Source: Candidatus Pacearchaeota archaeon (GTDB lineage Archaea > Nanobdellota > Nanobdellia > Pacearchaeales > GW2011-AR1). From it: DNA of 64,000 bases. Made by a program: the position numbers and the translations under genes. This document shows positions 12,421 through 34,325 of this stretch, piece after piece (within the stretch, counting starts at the first letter, position 1; each line of letters starts with the position of its first letter). The notes beneath the pieces are model-generated. The model made no database searches, was not told the origin of the DNA, and saw only the letters and a program-made list of their open reading frames with translations. The stretch is from positions 45 to 64,044 of the forward strand of contig JACPHA010000005.1 in NCBI GenBank assembly GCA_016188825.1, in the 5' to 3' direction.

Positions 12421-12601
12421 TTTTTATTTTATTAATTTTTATTTTATTAATTCACCTATTTAAATATTTCTTTAGTGCAATCCATATTTTTCATTCAAAT
12501 ATTTGGTTTTGTAAAGTTAAAAGGCGATAAATTCACTTGTTTTTACGATTTTGTCTAGGATAATTATCTGCCATCTCACATTGGCTTAACATTATTATCG
12601 T

Positions 12602-16629: not shown

Positions 16630-19600
16630 ATGATTAATGACTTGAAGAGAAAAATAATAGAACTGAAAAAAAATAGAGTGTTGGCTGTTAGAAATAAAGA
16701 GAAAATCATTCAAATTGCTAAAAAATTATTTTTGGATTATCAAAAAGGCAAGATAACAGAAGAAGAATATAAGGAAGAACTGAAGAAAAGTTTCGGCGGG
16801 AAAGAGGTAAAAGAATGGATTGAATATTATGATGTGTACATTGAGCAGTGCACCGGACAGATTGAATTTTATGGGTATAAATTAATGCAGGAGAAGACAA
16901 GAGCATTGACAAAGAAATTTGTTTCTTTTGTTTTAATTCTTGTTTTGTTTTTGATTCTGTTTTTTGTCTATTTACAACTGCAAAAACAGGTTTTTTTTGC
17001 TCCTATTACCGAAACCTATGTTGATAATTTGAATTTGTTTTATAATGAAAGTGCCGAATATGTTTGGAAACCGGAAAATGAAGGAAGAATCAACGGCGTG
17101 AAATTATCTGGTTTAATAGAAGGCGACGGCGAGGTTAAAGTTTATTTTGAGGATAAATTAATTTTGGACAGCAAGAATTTAGAAATCACCGAGGGAAAAA
17201 TAATAAGTGGAAACACAGTCTATAATAATTTAGATAATACAAGCGAAAATAATAATTTTAGTTCAGATAATATTTACGGCGGCGATGTTAATTTTTCTGG
17301 CAGCAGCGAGAATTTTGTTAGTAATCAGGCACAAGTTGAGAATACAATAAAGAAATTTAGTGAAATATGCGAAGAAACTTGTGACTTGAGTGAATTTAAT
17401 TTTAGTTCTGGAAATTATAAACTAAGAATTGAGATAAACGGAAACGCAAAGGTAAGAATTGATAATTTAAGTTATGGAATTTTTACAAAGGTAAGAATTG
17501 ATAATTTAAGTTATGGAATTTTTAAAGAAGTAGCAAAGGCAGAGGTTAAAGAGACTGCCCAAAGAGAGGAAAAAACTGCAAAAGGGAAAAAGGTTAATTT
17601 TGATGGCTTGATTCAGGGAGATTTAATTTCTACGGAAATTCCAGAGAGTTGGAATGTAAAAGATAAGAGCAAATTAAAAGTTTATTGGAAAGAAGGAGGG
17701 GAAGAAATTGATTTTGATGCTGTTGACAATAATAATGACGGAATTATCGACGAGCTTTCTTGGGAGAGTTCTCAGGGCGGAACTCAGACGTTTGAAATAA
17801 TTGTCATAACAAAAGCAGAGCATTTGGATTCTAATAAAGAATTTATTTCTGATATTTACGATTCCGTGAAGGAACTAGACGGGATTTGGAGCGAGGAGAT
17901 TCCAGACAAACATTATATAAGAGTTAAATTTGAAAGAAAATTGACAAACACGAATGATATTACAATTTATCCTCGAAAAATTAGCGGAAATCCAAGAATT
18001 GAGATTTATGAAATTAATGGGACTTCAACGATAGCTTCGTTTGACACTTTGAAAGATAATGAATATAACAAGGTTTATTTGACTTCATTGCAGAACAGCC
18101 AAGATAGTTTTGACCTTTTGGTTTTAGACGGAGCAATTGAGATTGAGCATATTGTGGATCCGAGCGCATCGCCGGGAAATGGAGTTGATTTAAGAGCGCA
18201 AGCTTGTGCTAGACAAAATCAACAAGGAAGTCAAAATACATTTGATTTAGCTTGTTTTGGAACATATCCTAATTCAACATGTTCCAGTTCTGGGGATAGA
18301 TTAAGCTGTGATGATGGAATTGTCGAAACCGCAACAACTTTCACAGGCACCTACGGAGGGATTAATGCCTCTTTTTATAATAGTTCAATAACAAACTGCG
18401 TTCAAATTGTGCAGGTATTTTTGTGTTATAATTTTTGGGGCAGTGCTCCTAATCAACATTCCTGTGAGGTTGGAGTTGATTCAGACGGGGGAGCTTCTTG
18501 GAGTAGTTTCAGTGTATCATGTTTTGGTGGTGATAGTGGAATAAGTTGTACTAACTTTACAGCAGGTCAAAATTGGCAGTGCAGCAATTTCTTTGGAGCG
18601 AACGGAACAAGTGCATTGGCAAAGGCACAAGCATTCAAGCAGGGCGGGGGCGGAATAAGGTCATGGAACTTTGATGTTTTATTCTTTAATTTAACTTATA
18701 CAGCGGATACAACACCTCCGCAAGTCACAATAATAGATCCTCAGAATAATTTTTATAACACTTCCTTTATTTACTTTAATATTTCTACTAATGAAAACAG
18801 CACTGCAAATTATAGTTTAGACGGCGGAAGAACAAATATTTCAATGAGCGCAAATGCATCTTTAACTGGTTTTACGGCTTTTAATAATTCAATTGCAGAT
18901 GGAATTTATACAGTTAATTATTATGTTAGAGATATTTATGGAAACTCTAATAACACGGAAAATGTAACATTTACAGTTGACACCACTGCTCCAACAGCAA
19001 ATTATGTTTCTCCGACTGAAAATTCTGGAGTTGCAAGAAACAGAGATTATATTGAGGTTAATGTTACAGCATCTGATTCTGGCGTTGGATTAGATAGCAT
19101 TTTGATAAGATTGTATAACTCTTCTCAAAATCAAATAAATAGCTCAACAACTTCATCTCCAAATTATATTAATTTTTCCGGCTTATCTGATGGATTATAT
19201 TTCTACAATACAACAGCAAATGATACTTTAAACAACAAAGTTGACTTAACAACAAGGAATATTACTTTGGATAGAACATTTCCTTTAATTTCTTATGGAG
19301 TTGGCACTGAAAATGACAATGCTGTTGTAAATAGAGACTGGATTTATGTTAATGTCACATTCTTAGAGATTAATTTTGCAAATATAACTTTCTTGTTGGT
19401 TAATGATTTTGGAATTGTTAATTCAACTACCCACACTACAGAAATTTATGAAATAAATTGGACAAATTTGCCTGCAGGGAATTATACTTACAATGTTTCA
19501 ATTTATGACCTCGCGGGAAACTTTAATTCAACTGCAACAAGAAAAATTAATTTGTCTGCCAGCGCCGGAAATTCCGCGCCAGAAATAATTTTTGTCGGTT

Positions 19601-20934
19601 TGGTAAATGATAGCTTTACTCCTTTGGGAAGTGCAACGCCGTTGGAAAGCAATGCGAGAAATGTAAGTTTTGTTTTCACTGCTTATGATGGGAATGGCGC
19701 AGGAAATTTAAACGGCAGCACAGCACAAGCAAGATTTCAGAGGACAGGGCAGATAACAAGAGAGAATTTAACTTGCTCTGAAATTTCAGGGCAAAACACA
19801 ACAAGCACAAAGAATTATAGTTGCACAATCGGAATGTGGTACTTCGATCAATCAGGAAATTGGATTGTAAATGCGACGATAAAAGACAATTCAAATGCAA
19901 TGGCGGAGAACTCATCAGCACAGTTCTTTTATGCAACTCTCGGCACTTTTGCTTTTTCACCTAAATCATTCGGGTTTGGAATTTTATTGCCCGGAGAGAT
20001 TAATAAATTGGCTTTGGAAGCGATGCTGATTAACAATACTGGAAATGCAAATTCTTCAAGTTTGAACATAACTGCTATTAATTTGTTGGGAGAGCAGGAT
20101 AGCAATTATATGATTCCTGCAGAAAACTTTACGGTTCATATTTCTGCTTTCTGTGATGTTGGGACAAGGATGCAAAATGGTACGAATGTTTCTGTTATCG
20201 GATCTTTATTGCCTCCAGGGAACAATTCGTTAAATTATAGGAATGAAACTTCAGGGCAGGAAGAATTGTATTTTTGTATTGAAGAAGTTCCAAACAGCAT
20301 TATTTCACAGGATTATTCAACAAGAATTGGCGGCTCTTGGGAGATTTTTATTTTTGTTGCGCCTTTTGTTATAAGAAGGAAGAGGAAAAAACATGGAAAA
20401 GAAATTAATGAAAAAATTGAAGTTGACAAAGAAGAGCTTCTTGATTTGTTGGGAGATAAATTAGAAGAATTGTTAATTTTAGTTAAGGAAAGAAAGATTA
20501 AGCGGGAAGAAAAAGAAATTATTAAGAAGGAGAAAATGGAGAAGAAAGAAATTGAAGTTCCTTTGGGAGTATTTAGAGAGAAAGCTGGAGCGGCGGAAGT
20601 ATTATGTAAATATCTGAGAGAAAACACTGGCTTGAAATTTGTTGAAATCGCAGAATTATTGAACAGAGACAGAAGGACAATAGGAGCCAATTACAAGAAT
20701 GCAGTTAGGAGAATAAAGAACAAGATAAAGATTGACAAAACAGGAGAGGAAATTTATATACCAATAGAAATTTTGGCAAACAGGAAATTGAGTATTTTAG
20801 AATCTGTCGTTCATTACTTGAGAGAAAAAGGCTTGAGAAATTCTGAAATAGCGGGCATGCTTAATAGAGACCCGAGGAATGTTTGGACTTTGTACTCAAG
20901 GGCAGTAAAGAAATTAAGGAAGAGTAATATTTAA
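16630..20934 (+). CDS. Giant two-TM surface protein with cytoplasmic C-terminal tandem HTH (cassette 1, gene 1)
   Basis: 1,434 aa. In order: a Lys/Glu-rich N-terminal ~95 aa; TM1 FVSFVLILVLFLILFFVYL (~16915-16985); a ~1,150 aa Asn/Cys-rich middle part full of N-x-S/T sequons; TM2 WEIFIFVAPFVI (~20338-20373) followed by RRKRKKHGK (positive-inside); then two HTH repeats. The last ~290 ectodomain residues are homologous to the signal-peptide protein encoded at 20980, which supports an extracellular location. Confidence 0.85.
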   Translation: MINDLKRKIIELKKNRVLAVRNKEKIIQIAKKLFLDYQKGKITEEEYKEELKKSFGGKEVKEWIEYYDVYIEQCTGQIEFYGYKLMQEKTRALTKKFVSFVLILVLFLILFFVYLQLQKQVFFAPITETYVDNLNLFYNESAEYVWKPENEGRINGVKLSGLIEGDGEVKVYFEDKLILDSKNLEITEGKIISGNTVYNNLDNTSENNNFSSDNIYGGDVNFSGSSENFVSNQAQVENTIKKFSEICEETCDLSEFNFSSGNYKLRIEINGNAKVRIDNLSYGIFTKVRIDNLSYGIFKEVAKAEVKETAQREEKTAKGKKVNFDGLIQGDLISTEIPESWNVKDKSKLKVYWKEGGEEIDFDAVDNNNDGIIDELSWESSQGGTQTFEIIVITKAEHLDSNKEFISDIYDSVKELDGIWSEEIPDKHYIRVKFERKLTNTNDITIYPRKISGNPRIEIYEINGTSTIASFDTLKDNEYNKVYLTSLQNSQDSFDLLVLDGAIEIEHIVDPSASPGNGVDLRAQACARQNQQGSQNTFDLACFGTYPNSTCSSSGDRLSCDDGIVETATTFTGTYGGINASFYNSSITNCVQIVQVFLCYNFWGSAPNQHSCEVGVDSDGGASWSSFSVSCFGGDSGISCTNFTAGQNWQCSNFFGANGTSALAKAQAFKQGGGGIRSWNFDVLFFNLTYTADTTPPQVTIIDPQNNFYNTSFIYFNISTNENSTANYSLDGGRTNISMSANASLTGFTAFNNSIADGIYTVNYYVRDIYGNSNNTENVTFTVDTTAPTANYVSPTENSGVARNRDYIEVNVTASDSGVGLDSILIRLYNSSQNQINSSTTSSPNYINFSGLSDGLYFYNTTANDTLNNKVDLTTRNITLDRTFPLISYGVGTENDNAVVNRDWIYVNVTFLEINFANITFLLVNDFGIVNSTTHTTEIYEINWTNLPAGNYTYNVSIYDLAGNFNSTATRKINLSASAGNSAPEIIFVGLVNDSFTPLGSATPLESNARNVSFVFTAYDGNGAGNLNGSTAQARFQRTGQITRENLTCSEISGQNTTSTKNYSCTIGMWYFDQSGNWIVNATIKDNSNAMAENSSAQFFYATLGTFAFSPKSFGFGILLPGEINKLALEAMLINNTGNANSSSLNITAINLLGEQDSNYMIPAENFTVHISAFCDVGTRMQNGTNVSVIGSLLPPGNNSLNYRNETSGQEELYFCIEEVPNSIISQDYSTRIGGSWEIFIFVAPFVIRRKRKKHGKEINEKIEVDKEELLDLLGDKLEELLILVKERKIKREEKEIIKKEKMEKKEIEVPLGVFREKAGAAEVLCKYLRENTGLKFVEIAELLNRDRRTIGANYKNAVRRIKNKIKIDKTGEEIYIPIEILANRKLSILESVVHYLREKGLRNSEIAGMLNRDPRNVWTLYSRAVKKLRKSNI
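17447..17524 (+). repeat. Perfect 39 bp tandem duplication inside cassette-1 gene 1
   Basis: caaaggtaagaattgataatttaagttatggaattttta occurs at 17447-17485 and again at 17486-17524 (protein KVRIDNLSYGIFT / KVRIDNLSYGIFK). The paralog at 25435-25473 has one copy. Confidence 0.95.
20560..20931 (+). other. Tandem HTH domains (sigma-70 region 4 / LuxR-GerE-like) of the 1,434 aa protein
   Basis: AAEVLCKYLRENTGLKFVEIAELLNRDRRTIGANYKNAVRRIKNK and ILESVVHYLREKGLRNSEIAGMLNRDPRNVWTLYSRAVKKLRK. The pattern h-L-E-x(4)-L-x-E-x-G-x(3)-EIA-x-L-x-R-x(2)-R-T/N-V-W-x(2)-Y-x-R-A-x-KKL matches the sigma70_r4/GerE helix-turn-helix layout. Confidence 0.7.
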
Positions 20935-20979: not shown

Positions 20980-21918
20980 ATGGAAAAGACAAAAATTATT
21001 TATTTTTTTATTATGTTTGTTGTTATCGCTTTGTTTTTGATTAATTTTGTTTCTGCTAGTTTTGGTGATTGGCTTAGAGAATTGTTTGGAGGAGAGCCGC
21101 AACTTGCGCCATTTAATCTTACTGTAACTGTTGGGAATACTCCGCCCAATATAACTTTTGTTATTGCTCCCGGAGCTTCGCCAGTAGAAAACGGAACTTC
21201 TTTTGTCAATGTTATTTTCACAGCATTTGACCAAAATGGAGCAGGAGATTTAAATAGCAGTACAGCGCAAGCAAGATTTCAGAGGACAGGGCAGATAACA
21301 AGAGAGAATTTAACTTGTGCTGAAGTTTTAGGACAGGCAACAACGAACACGAAGAACTATAGTTGCACAATCGGAATGTTGTACTTCGATCAATCTGGAA
21401 ATTGGATTGTAAATGCGACGATAAAAGACAATTCTAATGCAATGGCGGAGAATTCCAGCGCAATATTTTCATATGGGACTTTTATTGGCACATTCTTTTC
21501 TCCTAAACAAATGTCGTGGGATTCATTAAGCGCCGGAGCCGCTAATGTACCCTCGGGCAATAATCCCATGCTTTTGAATAATACAGGCAATGTTAACATT
21601 AATTATACTAATGGCAACTTTAATATTACCGCTATTGATTTGGAGATAGAAAATCCTGGAAGCGGCGAATATATATATGCCGGAAACTTCAGCGTTGATA
21701 TAAGTGCTGCAGGATGTTTAGGAACACAAATGGCAAATGGAACTTCAAGAGCAATAGTAAATGCCATCTTACCACCGGGAAACAATTCATTAAATTATAG
21801 AAATGATAGTTCAGGACAGGAAGAATTATACTTCTGCATAACCGCCTTAAGCGGAACTTTATCACCTGGAACATATTCAGCTTTGAAAGGAGGCTCATGG
21901 AAACTTGATTATTTGTAA
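20980..21918 (+). CDS. Secreted Asn-rich protein, free-standing paralog of the membrane-proximal ectodomain of the upstream gene (cassette 1, gene 2)
   Basis: 312 aa. Signal peptide IIYFFIMFVVIALFLINFVSA followed by SFGDW. Blocks are identical or nearly identical to 19726-19910 of the upstream gene (e.g. 21268-21317 = 19726-19775, 50/50 nt). No TM or HTH at the C-terminus. Confidence 0.8.
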   Translation: MEKTKIIYFFIMFVVIALFLINFVSASFGDWLRELFGGEPQLAPFNLTVTVGNTPPNITFVIAPGASPVENGTSFVNVIFTAFDQNGAGDLNSSTAQARFQRTGQITRENLTCAEVLGQATTNTKNYSCTIGMLYFDQSGNWIVNATIKDNSNAMAENSSAIFSYGTFIGTFFSPKQMSWDSLSAGAANVPSGNNPMLLNNTGNVNINYTNGNFNITAIDLEIENPGSGEYIYAGNFSVDISAAGCLGTQMANGTSRAIVNAILPPGNNSLNYRNDSSGQEELYFCITALSGTLSPGTYSALKGGSWKLDYL

Positions 21919-21919
21919 A

Positions 21920-22585
21920 ATGATAAAAAGTAATTCAATTATAAAGTTCGGAATTTGTAGTTTGTTTTTGATTATTATTTTGAGCTCGGGAGTAATTTCC
22001 CCAGGAGTTGCTTCTCCGCCCTATGGCCCTGAGAGCCCCCTAGAACTTGTGCCAGGAGAGAGTAAGAGTTTAGATTTTATCTTGCAAAATGCCGGCGGAG
22101 AAGATATTAAATTTAGAGTAACTTTGACACAAGGAGAGGCGATTGCAAGGCTAACAGATAATAATTTGGAGTATCTTGTTCCTGCCGGAAGAACAGACGT
22201 CAAAGTTCCTGTTTTGGTCAGCATTCCAGAAGAGGCAGTTTTAGGAAGCGAACACACGGTTGGTATTTCTGTTGAGGAAATCCCTGTTACAAGCGAAGGA
22301 ACTTTACAGTTTGCAACCCGCTACGGCAGTTCTTTTCCTGTAGTTGTTAAGGCTTTTTCGCCAGGAGAGGCGGGTGGAGAAACAGAAGAGGGATTGAGCA
22401 CAGGGCTTTTGATTGGAATTGCAATTGGAATTTTGGTTTTGTTAATAATAATTTTAGTTGTCGTTTTGAAGAGAAGAAGTAAAGCAGGAAGCATGATGGC
22501 AGGAACTGGGCAGACAGAGGCTCAAATGCAGACAAGCGGAGAAATGGAAGATGAAAGGAAAGGACCTGTTTATTCTTTGAAGTGA
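21920..22585 (+). CDS. C-terminally anchored single beta-sandwich surface protein (cassette 1, gene 3)
   Basis: The ORF track starts at TTG 21905; ATG 21920 lies 1 nt after the upstream stop. In order: signal peptide, PGESKSLDFILQNAGGEDIKFRV-type strand pattern, Gly/Glu linker, TM LLIGIAIGILVLLIIILVVVL, then KRRSK. Confidence 0.7.
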   Translation: MIKSNSIIKFGICSLFLIIILSSGVISPGVASPPYGPESPLELVPGESKSLDFILQNAGGEDIKFRVTLTQGEAIARLTDNNLEYLVPAGRTDVKVPVLVSIPEEAVLGSEHTVGISVEEIPVTSEGTLQFATRYGSSFPVVVKAFSPGEAGGETEEGLSTGLLIGIAIGILVLLIIILVVVLKRRSKAGSMMAGTGQTEAQMQTSGEMEDERKGPVYSLK

Positions 22586-23012: not shown

Positions 23013-23486
23013 TCAACATTTCACAATATTTTTTTCTCCGAGTTTGCAGGTATAATAATATAAGGAGAGAGTTTTTGGGTTTTTTGAAGATTCTTCAGAG
23101 AAGAAGTAGGTTTTTGTTGTTCCGGGAGCAAGGATTTCACAGCCAGGACAGGAATTTGTGTTTTCGCAAATCCATGATGACTCCGAATTTTCATAACTGA
23201 TTATGAATGTTAAAGAGTTGATATTGATGTTTTCAGAAGATCTTGTTAGCGTTGCTTCTGTTTCATTTGTCTCTTGACTGAAGCAAACATTATTTATTGT
23301 TATGGGATTTTTTATCTGCAAATCAATGCAATTAAATTCTGGAGAAAGGGTTTTTGTGCCAATTGGTTTTATTAGAGTGTTATATAATAAAAATGCCGCC
23401 GCGATTATAATTAATACTAGAGATAATGTTATGACTATTTCAGCCAAACCCTTTTTATTTAATTTTTCTATTTTCATATTCTGCAT
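23013..23486 (-). CDS. Type IV pilin-like protein (class III signal peptide)
   Basis: N-terminus MQNMKIEKLNKKG/LAEIVITLSLVLIIIAAAFLLY: a short basic region, Gly, then ~22 hydrophobic residues, as in archaeal prepilins. 13 nt overlap with the upstream protease gene. Confidence 0.55.
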   Translation of the reverse strand: MQNMKIEKLNKKGLAEIVITLSLVLIIIAAAFLLYNTLIKPIGTKTLSPEFNCIDLQIKNPITINNVCFSQETNETEATLTRSSENININSLTFIISYENSESSWICENTNSCPGCEILAPGTTKTYFFSEESSKNPKTLSLYYYTCKLGEKNIVKC

Positions 23487-24589
23487 GGTCTTGCTCCGAT
23501 ATCATTTAGTTTAAGTTCTCCTATTTTTCCGTTATAAATTATTTGAAGTTTTGCTGCTTTTTCTAATATAGGTATTTTCAATATAAATTCTCCAGAGTTC
23601 TCGAATATTTCTCCAGTTAAATCAGTGTTTGCTTCTGTTGCAGGGGAATCTGTGAAAATTAATTCTGCGTTGAAATCTCCAGAATGAATAACTTGGCCGT
23701 CTTTTAAGATAACATTAAATTTAAATTCTCCGAAGCCATTAGATCCCACGCAGCCATCTGCGATTTCCCTTGAAGTTATTCTAACTTCTTGGTTTTGGTA
23801 GACACCAGTTATAAGGAAATATTTTTGATTTTCGCAGTCTAGTTCCGGAGAAATTACAGAGCCGGTGATTTTTGAATTTTTTTCTGTGTTTTCATTTATT
23901 CTGGATTGCACGAGAAAAGAATTAAACTTGCCGTAGGCATTTGATTCAAGAGTTCTCATGACTCCGTTTTCAATTGACCTTGTGTAATCATCTCTTGAGC
24001 AGCCTTCGAAACAGCCGTCTTTTATTTCTGAGAATTCAGAGCAGGATGAAACGCAATTTTTTGCTTCTCTTGGCAAACGCGCAGGGACATATTCTTCTGC
24101 GAGATTTGCAAACGCGTGTCCGAATTCATGAGTCAGGACAGATGAAGGGTGCCTTGAATTTATGCTCATTACGTTCATGTAAGAAGAGCTTCTTATTTCT
24201 GGAGACTGCTTTTCAACGACGACGACGTAATCATTAGGGCATGAAGAAGCTGTTTTAATTAAATCTTTTGAATAACATAGCAAAGCAATTTCCTTGTATA
24301 GTTTGCAATCCGGCTTATAGGAATCAATGTAGAAGAAGTTAAATTTGTCCTTGTTTTCTCTTATGGGGGTTGTTTCCATTAGGTGATTTGTGTATCTCTC
24401 TGCAGTGTTTTTATCTGAAAAGAAAACAAGGTTGATTTTATCATTTCCATTAAACCTGATTGCTTTGCATTCCTGCAATTGGACTGGAGAGCTCTTTATG
24501 TTTAAACTATATATGAATATAATGAGGAAAATAAAGGAAACGGACAAGGCCGATACTATTAATGTTATTAATAATTTTCTTTTTTCCAT
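23474..24589 (-). CDS. Anchored/secreted zinc metalloprotease, M64 (IgA-peptidase)-like
   Basis: N-terminal signal anchor. HEFGHAFANLAEEY is HExxH plus a downstream Glu, arranged as remembered for peptidase family M64. An INLVFFSD block lies near the N-terminus and there are several Cys. Confidence 0.65.
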   Translation of the reverse strand: MEKRKLLITLIVSALSVSFIFLIIFIYSLNIKSSPVQLQECKAIRFNGNDKINLVFFSDKNTAERYTNHLMETTPIRENKDKFNFFYIDSYKPDCKLYKEIALLCYSKDLIKTASSCPNDYVVVVEKQSPEIRSSSYMNVMSINSRHPSSVLTHEFGHAFANLAEEYVPARLPREAKNCVSSCSEFSEIKDGCFEGCSRDDYTRSIENGVMRTLESNAYGKFNSFLVQSRINENTEKNSKITGSVISPELDCENQKYFLITGVYQNQEVRITSREIADGCVGSNGFGEFKFNVILKDGQVIHSGDFNAELIFTDSPATEANTDLTGEIFENSGEFILKIPILEKAAKLQIIYNGKIGELKLNDIGARPCRI

Positions 24590-24803: not shown

Positions 24804-27800
24804 ATGAGCAAAATAAAAAATAAAATTTTTGAATTGCAGGAGAAAAAGAGAGAGATTTTTGTTAAAATCGCCCAATTAAAAAAAGAGAAAGATAAATCAG
24901 ATTATAATATCCAGTTAAGAACTTATCATGCACAGAAAGAATGGGTTGAGAGCGAGATAAGGCGAGAAAAAAGAAAATCTGTTAGAAATATTTTAATTCC
25001 GATATTTTTCATTTCTTTATTTTTAGTTGTGATTTTTCTTTATGTATTTTTTAAACCAACGCTGACAGGGTTTGCAGTTTTTGAAGGAGTTAGTAAGATT
25101 TATACAAAACAATTGGATATTTGGGAGAATAATAGTGAGGAATATACAATTGAAATTAATGAGAGTGGAAGAATCAACAGCGTGAAATTATCTGGTTTAA
25201 TAGAAGGCGACGGCGAAGTCAAAGTTTATTTTGAGGATAAATTAATTCTTTATAGCAATAATCTGAAAGTTAGCGAGACCAAGTTAATAAATAAAACTCT
25301 AGATGATAACCAAACACAAGAAGTTGAAGTTGCAATAAAGAAATTTAGTGAAATATGCGAAGAAACTTGTGACTTGAGTGAATTTAATTTTAGTTCTGGA
25401 AATTATAAACTAAGAATTGAGATAAACGGAAACGCAAAGGTAAGAATTGATAATTTAAGTTATGGAATTTTTAGAGAAGAGAAAATTGAAAGAGGGAAAA
25501 GAGCAGAGTTTGTTGAGCTGGTTGAGGGAGATATAATTTCGACGGAAATTCCGGAAAGCTGGAATATAAAAAATAAAAATAAAATAAAAATTTATTGGGA
25601 AGAAGGAGGAAAAGAAATTGATTTTGACGTCGGTGATAATGATAATGATGGAGTTATTGATGAAGTTTCTTGGACAAGCCCGCAGGGCGGAACTCAGACG
25701 TTTGAAATAATTGTCATAACAAAAGCAGAGCATTTGGATTCTAATAAAGAATTTATTTCTGATATTTACGAGGATGTTCGCGAGCTGGATGGAAAGTGGA
25801 GCGAGGAAATTCCATCAGGGGATTTTGTAAGAGTTAAATTTGAAAGAAAATTGACAAACACGAATGATATTACAATTTATCCTCGAAAAATTAGTGGAAA
25901 TCCAAGAATTGAGATTTATGAAATTAACGGGACTTCAACGATAGCTTCGTTTGACACTTTGAAAGATAATGAGTATAACAAAGTATTTTTGACTTCATTA
26001 CAAGGTGAGCAGGATAGTTTTGACCTTTTGGTTTTAGACGGAGCAATTGAGATTGAGCATATTATTGACCCTACACAACTATTCTTTGAGAATTTTGAAG
26101 CTGGGAATTTAAATAATTGGAATAACGTAGCTTTATGGAATAATGCATCAGACCGAAAGGACACGGGGACATATAGCGCTAAATGCACAGGTGCTAATGA
26201 TTGTGATATGAGTCTTGCTACTGCCTTAGATACTTCAACTGCTTCAGAAGTTAATGTAACTTTCAGATTTAATGATGATGATTTGGATGGAGTAGGCGAC
26301 GCACCATATTATTGGAATGACAGTTCTGGAAATTGGGATTTGATAGGAGAACTTGATTCAGCCACAGAAGATACATGGCTTACTTTTTCAAATTCATCAA
26401 CTGATTCGCAATATTTCCATAAAGGATTTAACATAAGGTTTACTACCACTCTTGATGGTGGTGGTGGCGTTGAAAATCTTTGGCTTGATAATATAAATGT
26501 TTCTTATACTCCCGATACAACTCCTCCAATAGTAACAATAAATCAGCCAACTCCTCCCTATGTGAATATCTCAACATCAAGCGTTGACTTCAATGTAACA
26601 ATAGACGAGAATGGCGATACAGCTAGATACACATTAGACAGTGGAGCAAACAATGTAACAATGCAAAAAAACGGCCAGAGAGACTTTAATCATACAAATT
26701 CCAGCATAGCAGATGGCTTGTATACTATAAGATTTTATGTAAATGATACAGCAGGCAATTTAAATGATACAGCAAATAGAACATTTACAGTTGACACCAC
26801 TTCTCCAACAGCAAATTATGTTTCTCCGACTGAAAATTCTGGAGCTGCAAGAAACAGAGATTATATTGAGGTTAATGTTACAGCATCTGATTCTGGCGTT
26901 GGATTAGATAGCATTTTGATAAGATTGTATAACTCTTCTCAAAATCAAATAAATAGCTCAACAACAACTTCATCTCCAAATTATATTAATTTTTCAGGCT
27001 TATCTGACGGATTATATTTCTACAATGCAACAGCAAATGATACTTTAAACAACAAAGTTGACTTAACAACAAGGAATATTACTTTGGATAGAACATTTCC
27101 TTTAATTTCTTATGGAGTTGGCACAGCAGACGACGGAGCAAATTTAACACAATCAAATATTTATGTTAATGTCTCGGTTACAGAAACAAACTTTGCAAAT
27201 ATAACTTTCTTGTTGAGGAATGATACCGCAACAGTAAATTCTACAACATTTACAACCGCAACTTATGAAATTAACTGGACAGGTCTTCCATTGACAAATT
27301 ATACATACAATGTTTCAATTTATGATACGGCCGGGAATTTTAATTCAACAGCTACGAGGAAGATTAATTTATCAGAGGCAGCGCTAAATTCAGCTCCAAC
27401 AATAACGTTTGTAAGCATTATGCCTGCGACAGACCCAAGTGAAAACACCATTAAGAATATTTTATTTAATTTTACAGCTACAGATGCAGATGGTGGAGGA
27501 AATATTAATATTAGTACAGCGCAAGCAAGATTCCAACTTACTGGACAGACAACAAGGTCCAATTTAACTTGCGCAAATATTACCGGTGTTTTTAGCAGTA
27601 ATAATATGAACTTCACTTGCACTGTTGGAATGTGGTATTTTGACTATCCAGGAGCATGGACAGTTAATGTTACAATTTCTGATAATAGCGCAGCAAATGG
27701 CGAGAATTCAACAACAACATTTACTTATAATACTCTGAATGCGATGGTAATGTCTCCCAATGCTTTAACATGGGCAAGTTTATCAGCCGGGGCTTTGAAC

Positions 27801-28742
27801 ACGCTTTCTAACAATGACCCAATCTTGATAAACAACACAGGAAACAAGAATGTAACAAACATTACTATAAATGCGATAAATTTGATTGGTGAGCAGAATG
27901 GTGCTTATAATATTCCTGCGGCGAATTTTACAGTCAGCATAACCGATTCTTGTGATTCCGGAACAATTATGGGAAATAACTCTCAAATTCAAGTTGGCAG
28001 TGCAATTTTGCCGAGAGGGAATAACTCATTAAATTATGGGAACGAAACTTCAGGACAGGAGCAGTTTTACTTTTGTTTGGAAGAAGTTCCGCAAAGCATT
28101 CCTTCACAACCATATTCAACATCTGCAGGAGGCGCATGGACCATAACAATTCTTGCGACAGTGTTTGCTGTTGCCGGGAGCGCTAGAAGAAAGAGGAAGA
28201 AGAAAATTAAGGATGATAAGCTAGTAGATGTTTTGGGCTCGATAATAGACGAGATAAAAGAAAAACATTCTTTGAGTAAGGCAGAAATACTAAACTTGGT
28301 TGTGAAAGAATTAAAAGAGAAGTATAAGATTAGCAATAGTGAGATAGCTGAGATTCTTGAACTGAAGCAGAAGGACAATATTCCAATAACAATATTTTCC
28401 AGCAAACTTGGAGGTTTAGAAGCACTGGTTAAATATTTGAAGGAGAATGTTGAGATGAGATTCAGTGAGATTGCTAAAGTGCTGGGAAGAGATGACAGGA
28501 CGGTATGGACTGCATACAAAAAAGCATCAGAAAAAGAAAAAGAGAGGTTGAAAGTTAAGGAAACAGAAGTTTTGCTGCCGATTTCAATATTTAAAGACAG
28601 GAGAACGACTGTGCTTGAAGCTGCTATAATGCATCTTAAAGAAAAGGGCATGAAATATAGTGAAATAGGAGAATTGCTTGGAAGAGACCAGAGAAATGTC
28701 TGGGCTATTTATTCGAGAGCAGTTAAGAAGTTGAGGAAATAA
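24804..28742 (+). CDS. Giant two-TM surface protein with cytoplasmic C-terminal tandem HTH (cassette 2, gene 1)
   Basis: 1,312 aa paralog of 16630..20934. TM1 ILIPIFFISLFLVVIFLYVFF (~24990-25055). TM2 WTITILATVFAVAG (~28138-28180) followed by SARRKRKKK. Two HTH repeats follow. Several blocks are 100% identical to the cassette-1 gene. Confidence 0.85.
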   Translation: MSKIKNKIFELQEKKREIFVKIAQLKKEKDKSDYNIQLRTYHAQKEWVESEIRREKRKSVRNILIPIFFISLFLVVIFLYVFFKPTLTGFAVFEGVSKIYTKQLDIWENNSEEYTIEINESGRINSVKLSGLIEGDGEVKVYFEDKLILYSNNLKVSETKLINKTLDDNQTQEVEVAIKKFSEICEETCDLSEFNFSSGNYKLRIEINGNAKVRIDNLSYGIFREEKIERGKRAEFVELVEGDIISTEIPESWNIKNKNKIKIYWEEGGKEIDFDVGDNDNDGVIDEVSWTSPQGGTQTFEIIVITKAEHLDSNKEFISDIYEDVRELDGKWSEEIPSGDFVRVKFERKLTNTNDITIYPRKISGNPRIEIYEINGTSTIASFDTLKDNEYNKVFLTSLQGEQDSFDLLVLDGAIEIEHIIDPTQLFFENFEAGNLNNWNNVALWNNASDRKDTGTYSAKCTGANDCDMSLATALDTSTASEVNVTFRFNDDDLDGVGDAPYYWNDSSGNWDLIGELDSATEDTWLTFSNSSTDSQYFHKGFNIRFTTTLDGGGGVENLWLDNINVSYTPDTTPPIVTINQPTPPYVNISTSSVDFNVTIDENGDTARYTLDSGANNVTMQKNGQRDFNHTNSSIADGLYTIRFYVNDTAGNLNDTANRTFTVDTTSPTANYVSPTENSGAARNRDYIEVNVTASDSGVGLDSILIRLYNSSQNQINSSTTTSSPNYINFSGLSDGLYFYNATANDTLNNKVDLTTRNITLDRTFPLISYGVGTADDGANLTQSNIYVNVSVTETNFANITFLLRNDTATVNSTTFTTATYEINWTGLPLTNYTYNVSIYDTAGNFNSTATRKINLSEAALNSAPTITFVSIMPATDPSENTIKNILFNFTATDADGGGNINISTAQARFQLTGQTTRSNLTCANITGVFSSNNMNFTCTVGMWYFDYPGAWTVNVTISDNSAANGENSTTTFTYNTLNAMVMSPNALTWASLSAGALNTLSNNDPILINNTGNKNVTNITINAINLIGEQNGAYNIPAANFTVSITDSCDSGTIMGNNSQIQVGSAILPRGNNSLNYGNETSGQEQFYFCLEEVPQSIPSQPYSTSAGGAWTITILATVFAVAGSARRKRKKKIKDDKLVDVLGSIIDEIKEKHSLSKAEILNLVVKELKEKYKISNSEIAEILELKQKDNIPITIFSSKLGGLEALVKYLKENVEMRFSEIAKVLGRDDRTVWTAYKKASEKEKERLKVKETEVLLPISIFKDRRTTVLEAAIMHLKEKGMKYSEIGELLGRDQRNVWAIYSRAVKKLRK
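28380..28739 (+). other. Tandem HTH domains of the 1,312 aa protein
   Basis: GLEALVKYLKENVEMRFSEIAKVLGRDDRTVWTAYKKASEK and VLEAAIMHLKEKGMKYSEIGELLGRDQRNVWAIYSRAVKKLRK. Confidence 0.7.
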
Positions 28743-28845
28743 TCCATGAGAAAAATAAAATAAGTGACAATCCCTAAATTCCTTTCTAAGTAATTGATTA
28801 CCAAATCTTGATCCTGATTAATATAAAATATTTTATCAAATTATT

Positions 28846-28930
28846 GGCAATAATTAAAATATTAAAAAAACCTTATTTATTATAGTCATAATGGTTATTA
28901 TCAATAATCTATTAAAAAGTTGGCGCGGTA
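28846..28930 (+). promoter_or_regulatory. Conserved ~80 bp upstream element, copy A (~118 nt before the ATG at 29048)
   Basis: ggcaataattaaaatattaaaaaaaccttatttattatagtcataatggttattatcaataatctattaaaaagttggcgcgg aligns with 53664-53743 and 57903-57981. Confidence 0.6.
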
Positions 28931-29047
28931 ATCTTTGGTCAGAAAAAACATTTTAAAGACTAAAGATATTGTTATGTTGTTATAAAATGGAAAAAAGAAA
29001 TAATTAAAAAGGGTTGTTGGTTAATTAAATAAATAAAAAGAGGTTAA

Positions 29048-29983
29048 ATGGACAATAAAAAGAGTGTCTACGGAAAGATTTTGTTTTTGATTTTGATATT
29101 TGCTATTGTTTTTGCCCTTTCTTCGTCTGAATTTTTTAATTGGCCTCTTTCTTTATATAATCTTATCACTGGACGAGCAACAACTAGCACAACAAGTTTG
29201 AATATTAGCGTTACAAATACAGCACCGATAATAACCTTTGTCAGCGCGATTGCTGCGACAGATCCGACCGAAAGCAGCACAGTTAATATCAGAGTTAATT
29301 TTACAGCAAATGATGCCAATGGAGGAAGCGATCTGGATAGGTTTGGTGGGCAAGCAAGATTTCAGTTTACTGGACAGACAACAAGATCCAATTTATCATG
29401 CTCAAATGTAACAGGGGTTTTTAGCAGTAATAATATGAACTTCACTTGCACTGTTGGAATGTGGTATTTTGATGTGCCTGCCAGCTGGACTGCTAATATA
29501 ACTATAAATGATTCGGCAAATGCCAGAGGAGAGAATAGCACAACGACATTTACTTTCAATACATTAAATGCAATGGTTATGTCTCCTACGGCATTAACAT
29601 GGGCTTCTTTAAGTATAACTTCAACAAATGTAGGTTCTAATAATGATCCAATCACAATAAATAACACAGGCAATAAGAACGTGACCAATGTAACTGTTAC
29701 AGGAATTGATCTTCGTGGAGAATCAAATGGTGCATTTGCTATTTTTGCAAGAAATATTTCAGTAAATGCGGTTGATGTTTCGGATGGGTTCCTTATGTTA
29801 AATAATTCTGCTGTTCAAGTTGAAAACGCAACATTATTAAGAGGAAATAACTCATTAAATTATGGGAATGAAACTTCAGGACAGGAGCAGATTTACTTTT
29901 ACGTAGAGGCTCTTAATCCGGATTTAACATCGCAGGCATATTCAACATTGGCCGGAGGTGCATGGACTGTGACATCGCAATAA
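29048..29983 (+). CDS. Secreted Asn-rich protein, free-standing paralog of the upstream ectodomain (cassette 2, gene 2)
   Basis: 311 aa. Signal peptide ILFLILIFAIVFALSSS followed by EFFNW. 29417-29472 is identical (56/56 nt) to 27588-27643 of the upstream gene. No TM or HTH. Confidence 0.8.
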   Translation: MDNKKSVYGKILFLILIFAIVFALSSSEFFNWPLSLYNLITGRATTSTTSLNISVTNTAPIITFVSAIAATDPTESSTVNIRVNFTANDANGGSDLDRFGGQARFQFTGQTTRSNLSCSNVTGVFSSNNMNFTCTVGMWYFDVPASWTANITINDSANARGENSTTTFTFNTLNAMVMSPTALTWASLSITSTNVGSNNDPITINNTGNKNVTNVTVTGIDLRGESNGAFAIFARNISVNAVDVSDGFLMLNNSAVQVENATLLRGNNSLNYGNETSGQEQIYFYVEALNPDLTSQAYSTLAGGAWTVTSQ

Positions 29984-29984
29984 A

Positions 29985-30608
29985 ATGATGAATCACAAAA
30001 GAAATTATTTGCTTATTGGAGCATTATTATTTGTAATTATTTTTGTTTCTTACGTAGAATCAGCAGGAGTTGCTACTTCTTATTGGGAAGGATATGAGCT
30101 TAAAATGGCTCCGGGAGAGACGAGAGAAGTTTCTATGAGACTGCAAAATATGGTCGGAAGTGAAGACCTTACTTTTAGAGCAGAGCTTAAGGAGGGGGGA
30201 GAAATAGCCGTTTTAACAGATGAAAATTTAGATTATTTAGTTCCGCTTGGCAGGAACGATGTTAGAGTTAATTTGAGAATTACAATTCCTCAAGATGCTA
30301 AATTCGGAGATAAATATAATGTAAGGGTTTTGTTTAGAGAGATTAAAAGCGGAGAGGGAAAGACAGTGGAGTTTGCAACGGCCGTTGAAGGTTCTTTCCC
30401 TGTTTTGATTGTTGGAGAGGGCGAGCAGAGTCTTCAGGAAAGTCCTACAACTGGACAAATAACTGCGGAATCAGGAGCAAAAGGAAAAATAGCTATTATT
30501 TTATTAATTATTGCAGGCGTTATTGTAATAATATATTTGATTATTAAGAAAAGAAAAAAGACAGAAGATAAAAAAAGTTCTAAAACAAAGGCAGAGAAGA
30601 AATTTTAA
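29985..30608 (+). CDS. C-terminally anchored single beta-sandwich surface protein (cassette 2, gene 3)
   Basis: 207 aa paralog of 21920..22585. In order: signal peptide, PGETREVSMRLQNMVGSEDLTFRA, linker, TM IAIILLIIAGVIVIIYLII, then KKRKK. The ATG lies 1 nt after the upstream stop. Confidence 0.75.
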   Translation: MMNHKRNYLLIGALLFVIIFVSYVESAGVATSYWEGYELKMAPGETREVSMRLQNMVGSEDLTFRAELKEGGEIAVLTDENLDYLVPLGRNDVRVNLRITIPQDAKFGDKYNVRVLFREIKSGEGKTVEFATAVEGSFPVLIVGEGEQSLQESPTTGQITAESGAKGKIAIILLIIAGVIVIIYLIIKKRKKTEDKKSSKTKAEKKF

Positions 30609-30760: not shown

Positions 30761-30877
30761 ATCGATATTTATAAGTTTTTCAAAACTCTATATATCTTAC
30801 TTTTTTAATAAGCGCAATAAACAACAATAAATATTGAGAGAGGATAATTTTAAATATTTCTGTTGGTGCTTTCATAG

Positions 30878-32575
30878 ATGAAAAAAGAGGGTTTCATAAT
30901 TTTATTATTGGCAATAGGAGTTTTTTTTATTTTATTATTTTTATTTTATTATAATCTTGACAACTTTAAAAAAGGAAAATTTACAGGGAAAGCAACAAGC
31001 GAGAGTGTTGGACTTAATATAACTGTTGTAGGCTCAATTCCCACACTAACGATAGAAAAACCAAGAAATGAAACATATTTTAATAATCAATCATTAAGAT
31101 TAAAAATAACGAGCAATGGAAATAATTTTTGGTATAATTTAGATAATAATGCAAACACAACATTTAATGGCGATACATATTTTAATACTTCAGAAGGCGC
31201 ACACACGATTTATGTCTTTGCAAATAATTCTGCCGGAATAACAAAGAAAAATGTCAGTTTTTTTGTTAATTTTATGATATATAACATTTCTTTTAGTAAT
31301 TTTATAGGAGCATATGCGGGCAATTCAACCAATTTCAGAGAATTATCATATGAAGAAATGCAAAATCTAAGCAATGTTATACTTGAAAATACTTTGTTCG
31401 GAGGAATGAGATTTATTGATATAATTAATATGACTGCTGATTTTAATATGCATGATAATTTTACTGATATTGACAGTTTTATTAATGTTTCTTTTAATAG
31501 AATTGAATTAAATTCAAGCGGGTTGCCTAATTTTAACAAGAGCGCAGTTTTGACAATTCGTAATTTGTCATTGGCAAATCCGAGAATAGCCAGAGATGGT
31601 GTTGTTTGCCCTTCAACTATTTGCAAGATTATTAGTTATTCAAGTGGAACTCTAACTTTTAATGTTACTGGATTCAGTATTTATAGCGCAGAGGAAACTC
31701 CAGGAGTATCGCTTTCTCCTTCTGGCGGCGGAGGAGGCGGCGGAGGAACAATAGGAGTAGTAAAGAGCATTGGTAAAGAACTTTCAATTGATAAAGAAGA
31801 AATAAAGGTTTCTTTGAAGCAAGGAGAAACAAAGAGAGAGCAGTTTATAATCGAAAACACAGGAGAAGATGAGTTAAAGATATGGATTAATACCAGTAGT
31901 CTTAATGAATTTTTAGTAGTTAAACTAACGCAATTTACCCTTAGGCCAAATGAAAAAATAGTTGTTTTTGTTGACTTCTTTGCCCCTGAGACAACAAATC
32001 CTGATTTGTATTTAGGAAAGATTTTTGTTTCTTCTGGAGAAATTAAGAAAGAAATTCTTGTTTCTCTTGAGGTTGAATCAAAGAAACCATTGTTTGATGT
32101 TGAAGTTGAAATACTAAAAAAGGATTTAAGTTTTGAGCCAGGGGAAGAAATCATTGCAAATATAAAAATTTTTAATTTAGGAGAAATAGGAAGGGTTGAT
32201 GTTGGTGTTAGGTACGTTATAAAAGACGGAGAAGGAAATGTGATAATAGAAGAACTAAAAACCACTGCTGTTGAAACACAAATAAATTTTGTAAAAACCA
32301 TTACGATTCCAGAGGATGCAAAACCAGGGAAGTACGTGTTTTATACTAAAGTAGAATATAACGGAGGCGCAAGCGCAACAACACTTTTTACAATTAAGAA
32401 AAAATCTTTAGATTTTGTAATTTATTATATTGCGGGAGCCATTATATTAATTATTTTGACAGTTGTAATTTTTTACTTAATTCACAGATTAATACATAAG
32501 GAAGTAGAGTTTGCTATGACAGAGAAAAAAGATCATGAAAGAGATCAGAATTTTAAAAGAGAAGGGAATCTTTAA
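30878..32575 (+). CDS. Surface protein with poly-Gly hinge and C-terminal TM anchor (tandem paralog 1)
   Basis: 565 aa. In order: signal peptide, Asn-rich N-domain, SGGGGGGGGT hinge (~31724-31750), beta-sandwich repeats (SLKQGETKREQFIIENTGEDELKI...), TM and a basic tail. Confidence 0.75.
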   Translation: MKKEGFIILLLAIGVFFILLFLFYYNLDNFKKGKFTGKATSESVGLNITVVGSIPTLTIEKPRNETYFNNQSLRLKITSNGNNFWYNLDNNANTTFNGDTYFNTSEGAHTIYVFANNSAGITKKNVSFFVNFMIYNISFSNFIGAYAGNSTNFRELSYEEMQNLSNVILENTLFGGMRFIDIINMTADFNMHDNFTDIDSFINVSFNRIELNSSGLPNFNKSAVLTIRNLSLANPRIARDGVVCPSTICKIISYSSGTLTFNVTGFSIYSAEETPGVSLSPSGGGGGGGGTIGVVKSIGKELSIDKEEIKVSLKQGETKREQFIIENTGEDELKIWINTSSLNEFLVVKLTQFTLRPNEKIVVFVDFFAPETTNPDLYLGKIFVSSGEIKKEILVSLEVESKKPLFDVEVEILKKDLSFEPGEEIIANIKIFNLGEIGRVDVGVRYVIKDGEGNVIIEELKTTAVETQINFVKTITIPEDAKPGKYVFYTKVEYNGGASATTLFTIKKKSLDFVIYYIAGAIILIILTVVIFYLIHRLIHKEVEFAMTEKKDHERDQNFKREGNL

Positions 32576-32599
32576 ATATTTGCCTTGGTGTTTTTTATT

Positions 32600-34290: not shown

Positions 34291-34325
34291 GCAAGTTTTA
34301 AATATTTGTTTTATTATCTTTTATT

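Follow-up and report, generated by a model that had tools for sequence, protein, structure and literature searches.

Why should one module of a giant membrane-anchored surface protein resemble, in places letter for letter, a small secreted protein encoded by the next gene, and do so separately in two copies of one operon? The question arises from positions 45 to 64,044 of contig JACPHA010000005.1 (Candidatus Pacearchaeota archaeon, assembly GCA_016188825.1), a stretch of 64,000 nucleotides (nt) that we call the window. Its GC content is low (~33%), and its source is a low-GC DPANN archaeon of the Pacearchaeota/Nanoarchaeota type. On its plus strand lie two paralogous cassettes, each a copy of a conserved surface-protein operon that encodes, in order, a big membrane protein with many immunoglobulin-like (Ig) domains, a small secreted protein, an anchored Ig protein of ~200 amino acids (aa) and an anchored Ig protein of ~560 aa. 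The big and small proteins of cassettes 1 and 2 are called here big1, sm1, big2 and sm2. What they share is a module of ~255 aa, module D, which forms the end of the big2 ectodomain and makes up everything in sm2 past the signal peptide and a short leader; the window contains four copies of D only. We conclude that the two D copies of an operon are very probably kept alike by recurrent gene conversion within that operon, that is, by concerted evolution of the D module of the big protein and the small protein.

Matched D modules within the window

The initial annotation had noticed that big2, from the peptide LNSAPTITFVS (put at ~27383), runs parallel to sm2 from NTAPIITFVS (~29215). We place these peptides at 27384 and 29216, and the other peptide stretches that it quoted are indeed present in the alignment of the two proteins. 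The 56-nt block on which it relied (coordinates in Table 1) is identical at 56 of 56 positions, and the identity ends exactly at both edges. Cassette 1 contains a comparable perfect run of 50 nt (19726-19775 = 21268-21317). Chance was assessed with two null models of 5000 trials each, one in which the aligned codon columns were shuffled and one in which both proteins were kept while synonymous codons were redrawn from the window's own usage. For cassette 2, the longest identical run averaged ~18 nt under both nulls and never exceeded 38 nt (column shuffle) or 47 nt (synonymous redraw), so that 56 nt was reached in none of the 5000 trials of either; the same was true of the 50-nt run of cassette 1. 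Furthermore, high identity is not limited to the perfect block. The tract around it is 84% identical between big2 and sm2, compared with a domain average of 68.5% and a cross-cassette value of ~55%.

The window and all the loci compared with it are metagenome assemblies, and strain-variant unitigs branch nearby (at 28189, 28866 and 29011), which would favour the view that the identical blocks are collapsed or chimeric assemblies of strain variants. We examined this with Logan unitigs from four groundwater metagenome runs. The block, which is shorter than one read, formed a separate unitig in all four, and it was deeper than its flanks, two- to fourfold in three runs and ~1.3-fold in the remaining one. 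The same flanking unitigs (27095-27617, 27614-29446 and 29443 onward) were found in these independent runs, and a single linear path uses all the pieces. A deeper unitig of its own on one linear path is the signature that a genuine two-copy repeat leaves in a de Bruijn graph, and the initial annotation's concern about an artefact is thereby answered. The same phenomenon, with graded tract lengths, also occurs in dozens of unrelated assemblies. On the unitig structure in the four runs we rejected assembly artefact, to which we assign a negligible probability. As a separate matter, the unitigs of two of the runs (X3 and X4) leave the window sequence at 28189, 28866-28901 and 29011, in the big2 tail and the spacer between big2 and sm2, which suggests a co-occurring strain or a second context of the locus.

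How is the similarity distributed among the four D copies? Over the whole module, amino acid identity is 66% between big2 and sm2 and 59% between big1 and sm1, whereas big1 and big2 share 54% and sm1 and sm2 only 45%. Within each cassette, part of the first Ig domain stands out as a patch with 80-95% nucleotide identity (codon-alignment columns 120-345 in cassette 1; columns 150-285 plus smaller patches in cassette 2), while the same columns are ~55% identical across cassettes. The number of synonymous substitutions per synonymous site (dS) in the patch is 0.40-0.45 within cassettes, but it is saturated in the rest of D and across cassettes. Because synonymous sites match in this way, the likeness reflects exchange of DNA rather than co-adaptation of amino acids. 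In the quartet of window copies, 76 sites are concerted (big1 = sm1, big2 = sm2), 43 are orthologous (big1 = big2, sm1 = sm2) and 11 are noise. The concerted sites fall in columns 60-360, in the first Ig domain, and the orthologous sites in columns 420-660 and 720-780, in the second. This segregation by domain indicates that the unit of big and small genes was duplicated first, and that each cassette was homogenized later and separately. Thus, the match between anchored and soluble copies that the initial annotation described is genuine and arose independently in both cassettes.

Exchange is also seen on a larger scale. Outside D, big1 and big2 form a mosaic in which blocks of 97-100% nucleotide identity (at big1 aa ~231-290, 380-410, 440-500 and 786-875) alternate with blocks of 35-50%, which indicates that recombination between paralogues is active in this genome. 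D is among the most divergent parts of the two genes (50-60% nucleotide identity). Judging from this pattern, recombination or conversion appears to act between the cassettes as well, over a distance of 8 kb, without homogenizing D or the C-terminal helix-turn-helix (HTH) tail.

Two similar repeats lying close together in a surface protein also bring to mind programmed variation, either by a diversity-generating retroelement (DGR) with a template and a variable repeat, or by a pilE/pilS-type system in which the small gene would be a silent donor for the big gene. DGRs are carried by DPANN archaea. However, the mismatches between the copies are not biased towards adenines: every one of the 12 substitution types is represented, and third codon positions account for half of the differences. 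A motif scan, without a profile search of every ORF, of the window's open reading frames (ORFs) of at least 120 aa turned up no YxDD reverse-transcriptase motif. A DGR was rejected on these two grounds. Antigenic variation of the pilE/pilS type relies on a single expression locus that receives sequence from several donor copies, which lack promoters and are not expressed. Here, there is one small gene per cassette, with its own start, a signal peptide and a full-length secreted ORF conserved across at least 188 homologues, and silent-cassette variation was rejected for that reason. We would be very surprised if programmed variation of either kind were the explanation.

Concerted evolution in other genomes

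A scan of species-representative genomes yielded 74 loci, and the pair statistics given here cover 39 complete adjacent pairs of big and small genes. The order big, small, third, fourth is conserved; the third gene directly follows the small gene in 65 loci, and 53 loci have the fourth downstream. The best small-protein match of a big D module was its own neighbour in 35 of the 39 pairs, with a mean D identity of 0.67 for own pairs and 0.40 for all others, and own-pair identity was usually above that of the best big-big or small-small orthologue. In a neighbour-joining tree, 33 of the 39 pairs were sister tips, most with bootstrap values of 95-100 (94 and 100 for the two window cassettes). No 10-column block across columns 51-300 of the family profile hidden Markov model (HMM) carried a signal specific to big or to small proteins; such a signal was confined to the leader of the small protein. 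Synonymous divergence agrees, since dS was always at least 1.0 in comparisons of orthologues and as low as 0.05 in own pairs; for L019 and L020, for example, it was 1.6-1.8 between orthologues and 0.54-0.69 within pairs. The concerted pattern was favoured in all seven quartets tested. On these comparisons, exchange appears to have taken place after the lineages split, and independently in each.

Sister tips in a tree cannot by themselves separate conversion from duplication, and the pairs would look much the same if each cassette or genome had derived its small gene anew by duplicating the 3′ portion of its big gene, with no later exchange. We consider such independent, recent duplications very improbable, and rejected them on three features. 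First, the small proteins have a signal peptide and leader in common across genomes that the big proteins lack, and in columns 41-50 the small-to-small identity is 0.41 while the big-to-small identity is 0.21. Second, D has diverged very unevenly along its length: perfect blocks lie next to segments of less than 65% identity. Third, the 43 orthologous sites survive in the second Ig domain of the window quartet. Furthermore, the same four-gene order is found in 53-65 loci. That the match is no one-off duplication, as the initial annotation had argued, is borne out both by the excess of concerted over orthologous and noise sites in the window and by its recurrence in the great majority of pairs elsewhere.

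Traces of exchange of very different lengths are seen. The longest perfect runs between partners in other loci are 734, 678, 422, 396, 287, 155 and 142 nt, followed by lower values, and the identity maps are mosaic, with tract position and length varying among lineages. A conversion hot spot common to the family was rejected, as the excess of own-pair identity is uniform over HMM columns 51-300; the family as a whole does not follow the two window tracts in favouring the first Ig domain. Two of the loci (L045 and L064) belong to one metagenome-assembled genome (MAG), where one contig encodes a small protein with 75% identity to a big protein whose gene is cut off by the end of another contig. 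The break at D suggests that such repeats split assemblies, and recent conversions are probably under-sampled. There is a practical warning here, because exact repeats of up to 0.7 kb in recently converted pairs can break MAG contigs; short-read assemblies therefore probably recover too few of these loci or split them.

Is the matching itself selected? The initial annotation took the repeated pattern to argue for selection on pair matching, in which binding to each other, or to one common ligand, obliges the anchored and soluble D modules to match, and in which divergence between cassettes insulates the pairs. Several observations are in keeping with this idea. The big-to-small order and the boundaries of D are conserved in more than 39 lineages; D has diverged between big1 and big2 even though blocks elsewhere in these genes are nearly identical; in the other two-cassette genome (L056/L065) D identity across cassettes is 0.29-0.35, compared with 0.66 and 0.38 within them; and a single nucleotide separates the small and third genes, suggesting stoichiometric co-production. 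However, the match reaches synonymous sites and the tracts are mosaic, which is the signature of gene conversion, and DNA exchange is enough to account for it. Five pairs (L056, L054, L048, L021 and L072) have decayed to 37-46% identity with their operons still intact, so close matching cannot be essential. Where the two genes are not adjacent, either because the small gene is 3-5 kb from the big gene (L042 and L062) or because it is on the opposite strand (L072), the big D resembles D copies from other genomes (in L042 and L062, those of orthologous big proteins) more closely than it does the small protein of its own locus. These pairs carry the signal of orthologues rather than of partners, a loss of match that is predicted by proximity-dependent recombination. 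The ratio of non-synonymous to synonymous substitution rates (dN/dS) is also no lower in own pairs (0.13-0.60) than between orthologues (0.06-0.23), a comparison blurred by the saturation of orthologue dS and by mixtures of converted and unconverted sequence. Moreover, once D copies have diverged, homology-dependent conversion across cassettes stops unaided, which would mimic insulation. These data neither call for selection on pair matching nor demonstrate it; such selection is possible, although we regard it as the doubtful alternative rather than the probable one.

Recurrent intra-operon gene conversion, which we prefer, would operate as follows. The two D copies lie ~1.8 kb apart and in direct orientation, and they would repeatedly swap DNA by non-reciprocal homologous recombination. 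The tracts left behind range from tens of nt to over 700 nt, and their positions vary with the lineage. Through such swaps, a big D and its neighbouring small protein would evolve in concert and stay more alike than orthologues across genomes. The tracts in the window would then be old, short survivors, of 56 and 50 identical nt inside patches of 84-88% identity in the first Ig domain. The D modules may also work together, for example as a side-by-side pseudo-homodimer reminiscent of an anchored heavy chain and a secreted light chain, in which case conversion might be tolerated or even favoured. The mechanism is an ordinary and known one, for which a general framework of concerted evolution of paralogues exists (PMC3924837, PMC2720389); the operon family was previously uncharacterized, and we found no description in the literature of the D family, of its concerted evolution or of gene conversion in Pacearchaeota.

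A number of points weigh against this account. No conversion event has been caught directly, for example as a polymorphism within a population, and the source samples are represented by assembler unitigs. Assembly errors could in principle contribute to the very long identical runs of short-read MAGs; however, the graded series of tract lengths and the contig break at D in L045/L064 argue against this. Several pairs, as described above, have drifted far apart. Finally, the functional half of the account, the pairing of one D module with the other, is putative, and we give it a modest probability only.

Module D, the cytoplasmic tail and possible roles

Module D is a well-defined unit. An HMM of the small-protein family matches big2 at aa 853-1116 with an E-value of 5.5e-107, and an AlphaFold2 model of sm2, built with 33 homologues, shows two tandem beta-sandwich domains at a mean predicted local distance difference test (pLDDT) score of 87.9. 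When this model was compared with the PDB using Foldseek, only generic tandem Ig/fibronectin type III (FnIII) proteins were retrieved (RbmA and antigen-binding fragment (Fab) light chains; E ~1e-4, TM-scores of 0.2-0.3). A word-indexed search found 188 relatives of the small protein, nearly all unannotated, the named ones coming from MAGs of Pacearchaeota, Nanoarchaeota or Woesearchaeota. An exhaustive profile search for D returned 1859 cluster representatives (clustering at 50% identity), 775 of them at E <= 1e-30. Two architectures occur among these representatives: a protein of ~300 aa, or a large protein with D near its C-terminus. No relative was found among the viral contigs of IMG/VR, and a viral origin or viral relatives were rejected on that basis.

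From the N-terminus onward, big2 consists of a cytoplasmic coiled region, a first transmembrane segment (TM1, ~aa 62-83) and a long Ig-rich ectodomain dense in glycosylation sequons; D comes next, and past a short hydrophobic segment lies the cytoplasmic tail, which has two HTH units. The Pfam matches are to the Ig domains Big_13 and Big_3_2 and to Sigma70_r4_2 (PF08281), the last with 33.3 bits in big2 and 29.0 bits in big1 (cut-off 25.7). The tail of big2 is ~180 aa long, and a two-HTH tail is conserved in 57 loci. The NCBIfam models for sigma70-ECF and EnfR match it weakly, and it matches an archaeal transcription regulator in the PDB (8hnp, E 0.0034). The structure family of 8hnp has been described as EnfR (PMC10570040). 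A model of D plus tail (A2) had a shallow alignment and a mean pLDDT of 54, while the HTH part alone was confident and helical (pLDDT 80-90). Both big1 and big2 thus combine a DNA-binding-type HTH and an extracytoplasmic domain in one polypeptide.

What lies between these two parts is unusually short. Measured from the conserved tryptophan of the last D strand to the polybasic run, the hydrophobic stretch is 12-16 aa long, and mostly 12-14, in 42 homologues (L001-L069). The anchors of the third and fourth proteins of the same operon are longer than 20 aa. About one-quarter of the big proteins stop right past D, and in several such loci the gene just upstream, which usually abuts or overlaps the start of the big gene, encodes a homologue of the tail, a soluble two-HTH protein of 165-200 aa (Table 1). 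Since the homologue of the tail is a stand-alone cytoplasmic protein elsewhere, the tail of the fused form is probably cytoplasmic too, and the short segment would cross the membrane. Fusion and fission of this kind, read as a Rosetta stone, appear to link a Tfx/EnfR-like regulator to the surface-protein operon, and the tail, or the separate upstream gene in some genomes, may regulate the operon.

Several known systems share part of this arrangement. Gene conversion and concerted evolution were reportedly documented by Archibald and Roger in 2002 for the alpha and beta subunits of the archaeal thermosome, or chaperonin. In those subunits, as here, paralogues within a genome are closer than orthologues, tracts are mosaic, events are recurrent and independent, and the partners plausibly belong to one assembly. 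However, the homogenized element here is one module of a multi-domain membrane protein whose partner is a short secreted protein of the same operon, the D family is fast-evolving and extracellular, and its co-assembly is only putative. The vertebrate paired receptors (SIGLEC11/SIGLEC16 and the KIR and LILR pairs) also have ectodomains homogenized by gene conversion. The similarity lies in conversion that is confined to the Ig-like ectodomain of neighbouring genes with different anchoring or signalling parts, and in rapid divergence of the ectodomain between lineages; paired receptors differ from the D pair in being eukaryotic immune receptors in which both partners are usually membrane proteins. 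By analogy, the small archaeal protein might act as a decoy or counter-receptor.

The fused form recalls a different group, the membrane-tethered one-component regulators with a co-encoded extracytoplasmic partner (ToxR/ToxS, TcpP/TcpH and CadC). These also join an HTH through a membrane segment to an extracytoplasmic domain, and the neighbouring gene likewise encodes a small partner, secreted or periplasmic. The big proteins depart from this group in several ways. Their HTH belongs to the sigma-70 region 4/Tfx/EnfR type and sits at the C-terminus; the sensor module and the partner are paralogues; in about one in four homologues the HTH is not fused but has a gene of its own; and the segment in the membrane is unusually short. 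Regulation is putative. Finally, D resembles Fab and Vibrio cholerae RbmA (4be6), the top Foldseek matches, in its two tandem Ig/FnIII-like sandwiches, and one copy is anchored and one soluble, as in Fab. With the low TM-scores given above and ~10% sequence identity, this is generic similarity of fold and not evidence of homology or of a heterodimer.

The prevailing view of DPANN archaea is that they live attached to other cells, and to our knowledge almost nothing is known about their surface proteins. A bolder reading, which we think improbable, is that the anchored D and the secreted small protein might form a Fab-like heterodimeric recognition head on an episymbiotic DPANN cell, evolving fast (in recognition of a host or virus, for example). 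Conversion would keep the two chains compatible while each cassette gained a specificity of its own, and the fused (class B) form would wire the head, through the short membrane segment, to a two-HTH transcription factor. If true, this would be a one-polypeptide switch from surface receptor to gene, which is undescribed in archaea. Apart from this reading, the present work defines a widespread, unannotated operon family whose small protein has no Pfam or NCBIfam model, and a clear evolutionary behaviour in which a two-Ig module common to a giant anchored protein and its secreted neighbour is continually homogenized. It also gives rise to a testable hypothesis, namely that the two proteins may act together.

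Features of the locus

The coordinates of the features in the window, and of the stand-alone two-HTH genes in other loci, are collected in Table 1.

Table 1. Features of the two window cassettes and stand-alone two-HTH genes of other loci.
Feature	Sequence	Coordinates	Strand	Description	Basis
big1	Window	16630..20934	+	1434-aa paralogue of big2, cassette 1; module D at 19567-20346	
Conversion tract, cassette 1	Window	19687..19911	+	In big1; 88% identical to 21229-21453 in sm1; repeat family D4	
sm1	Window	20980..21918	+	312-aa secreted paralogue, cassette 1; module D from ~21133	
third1	Window	21920..22585	+	Anchored Ig-like protein, cassette 1; likely ATG at 21920, 1 nt past the sm1 stop	
big2	Window	24804..28742	+	1312-aa surface protein, cassette 2	ORF, Pfam
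Module D in big2	Window	27384..28145	+	aa 861-1114; two tandem Ig-like beta-sandwich domains; paralogous to the entire mature small protein	
Conversion tract, big2 copy	Window	27513..27647	+	84% identical to 29342-29476; holds the 56-nt perfect block 27588-27643	
Short hydrophobic segment of big2	Window	28134..28202	+	WTITILATVFAVAGSA, 16 aa, then polybasic RRKRKKK; presumed second membrane crossing	
Cytoplasmic tail of big2	Window	28203..28739	+	Two sigma-70-region-4/Tfx/EnfR-like HTH units	
sm2	Window	29048..29983	+	311-aa secreted protein: signal peptide, conserved leader (ITGxAT...LNI), module D, no membrane anchor	
Conversion tract, sm2 copy	Window	29342..29476	+	Holds the 56-nt perfect block 29417-29472	
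third2	Window	29985..30608	+	207 aa: signal peptide, one Ig-like domain, C-terminal transmembrane anchor; begins 1 nt past the sm2 stop	
Fourth operon gene	Window	30878..32575	+	565 aa: signal peptide, same leader motif as sm2, Ig-like domains, C-terminal transmembrane segment	
Tandem paralogue of fourth gene	Window	32585-34237		550 aa	
Stand-alone two-HTH gene	L017	369-962			
Stand-alone two-HTH gene	L033	4389-4934			
Stand-alone two-HTH gene	L042	5871-6470			
Stand-alone two-HTH gene	L062	5347-5946			
Stand-alone two-HTH gene	L063	1023-1517			
Stand-alone two-HTH gene	L030	4044-4595			
Stand-alone two-HTH gene	L061	2845-3354			
Stand-alone two-HTH gene	L072	4850-5413			

The density of NxS/T sequons in big2 is 3.9 per 100 aa against an expected 1.7, and in the big, small and fourth proteins it is 2-2.5 times expectation. 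This excess, a property of the predicted sequences, would fit extracellular glycoproteins. Searches of Pfam and NCBIfam gave nothing significant for the small, third and fourth proteins; the Pfam match of the fourth protein is to HYDIN/VesB-like Ig domains. Within the family, sm2 is unusual in lacking the second, nearly invariant cysteine pair (alignment columns C245 and C285; sm2 has S/D and Y there), which is kept in big2, big1 and sm1.

A motif resembling an archaeal TATA box, TTTAAATATTT, occurs at 30849-30859, 32571-32581 and 34297-34307, and also at 12459-12469 (four matches, 1.2 expected). Three surface-protein genes in a row, which start at 30878, 32585 and 34326, have it ~15-30 nt further 5′, and ~46 nt around the motif are conserved too (repeat family D18). 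After the cassettes comes an ORF of 4462 aa (35857-49245) without a D module, in which a region of ~400 aa (37663-38856) is common with the N-terminal ectodomains of big1 and big2, at 56% amino acid identity. Between 38839 and 43871 this ORF repeats internally with a period of ~1146 nt, and its sequon density, 5.3 per 100 aa, is the highest in the window. Between the cassettes, on the minus strand (23013-24589), are encoded a 371-aa protein with a weak match to M64 IgA-peptidase-like metalloproteases and an overlapping 157-aa membrane protein, neither of which was found beside the operon in the other 74 loci.

Duplication on a smaller scale is also evident in these genes. A 39-nt tandem duplication lies in big1 at 17447-17530 (KVRIDNLSYGIFT / KVRIDNLSYGIFK), where big2 has a single copy (25435-25479). 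The unit of small and third genes can itself be duplicated in tandem, as in L034 (134-3443), where the two copies of the small protein are 100% identical, and L040 (5103-9993) carries three small-protein genes with mutual identities of 36-60%.

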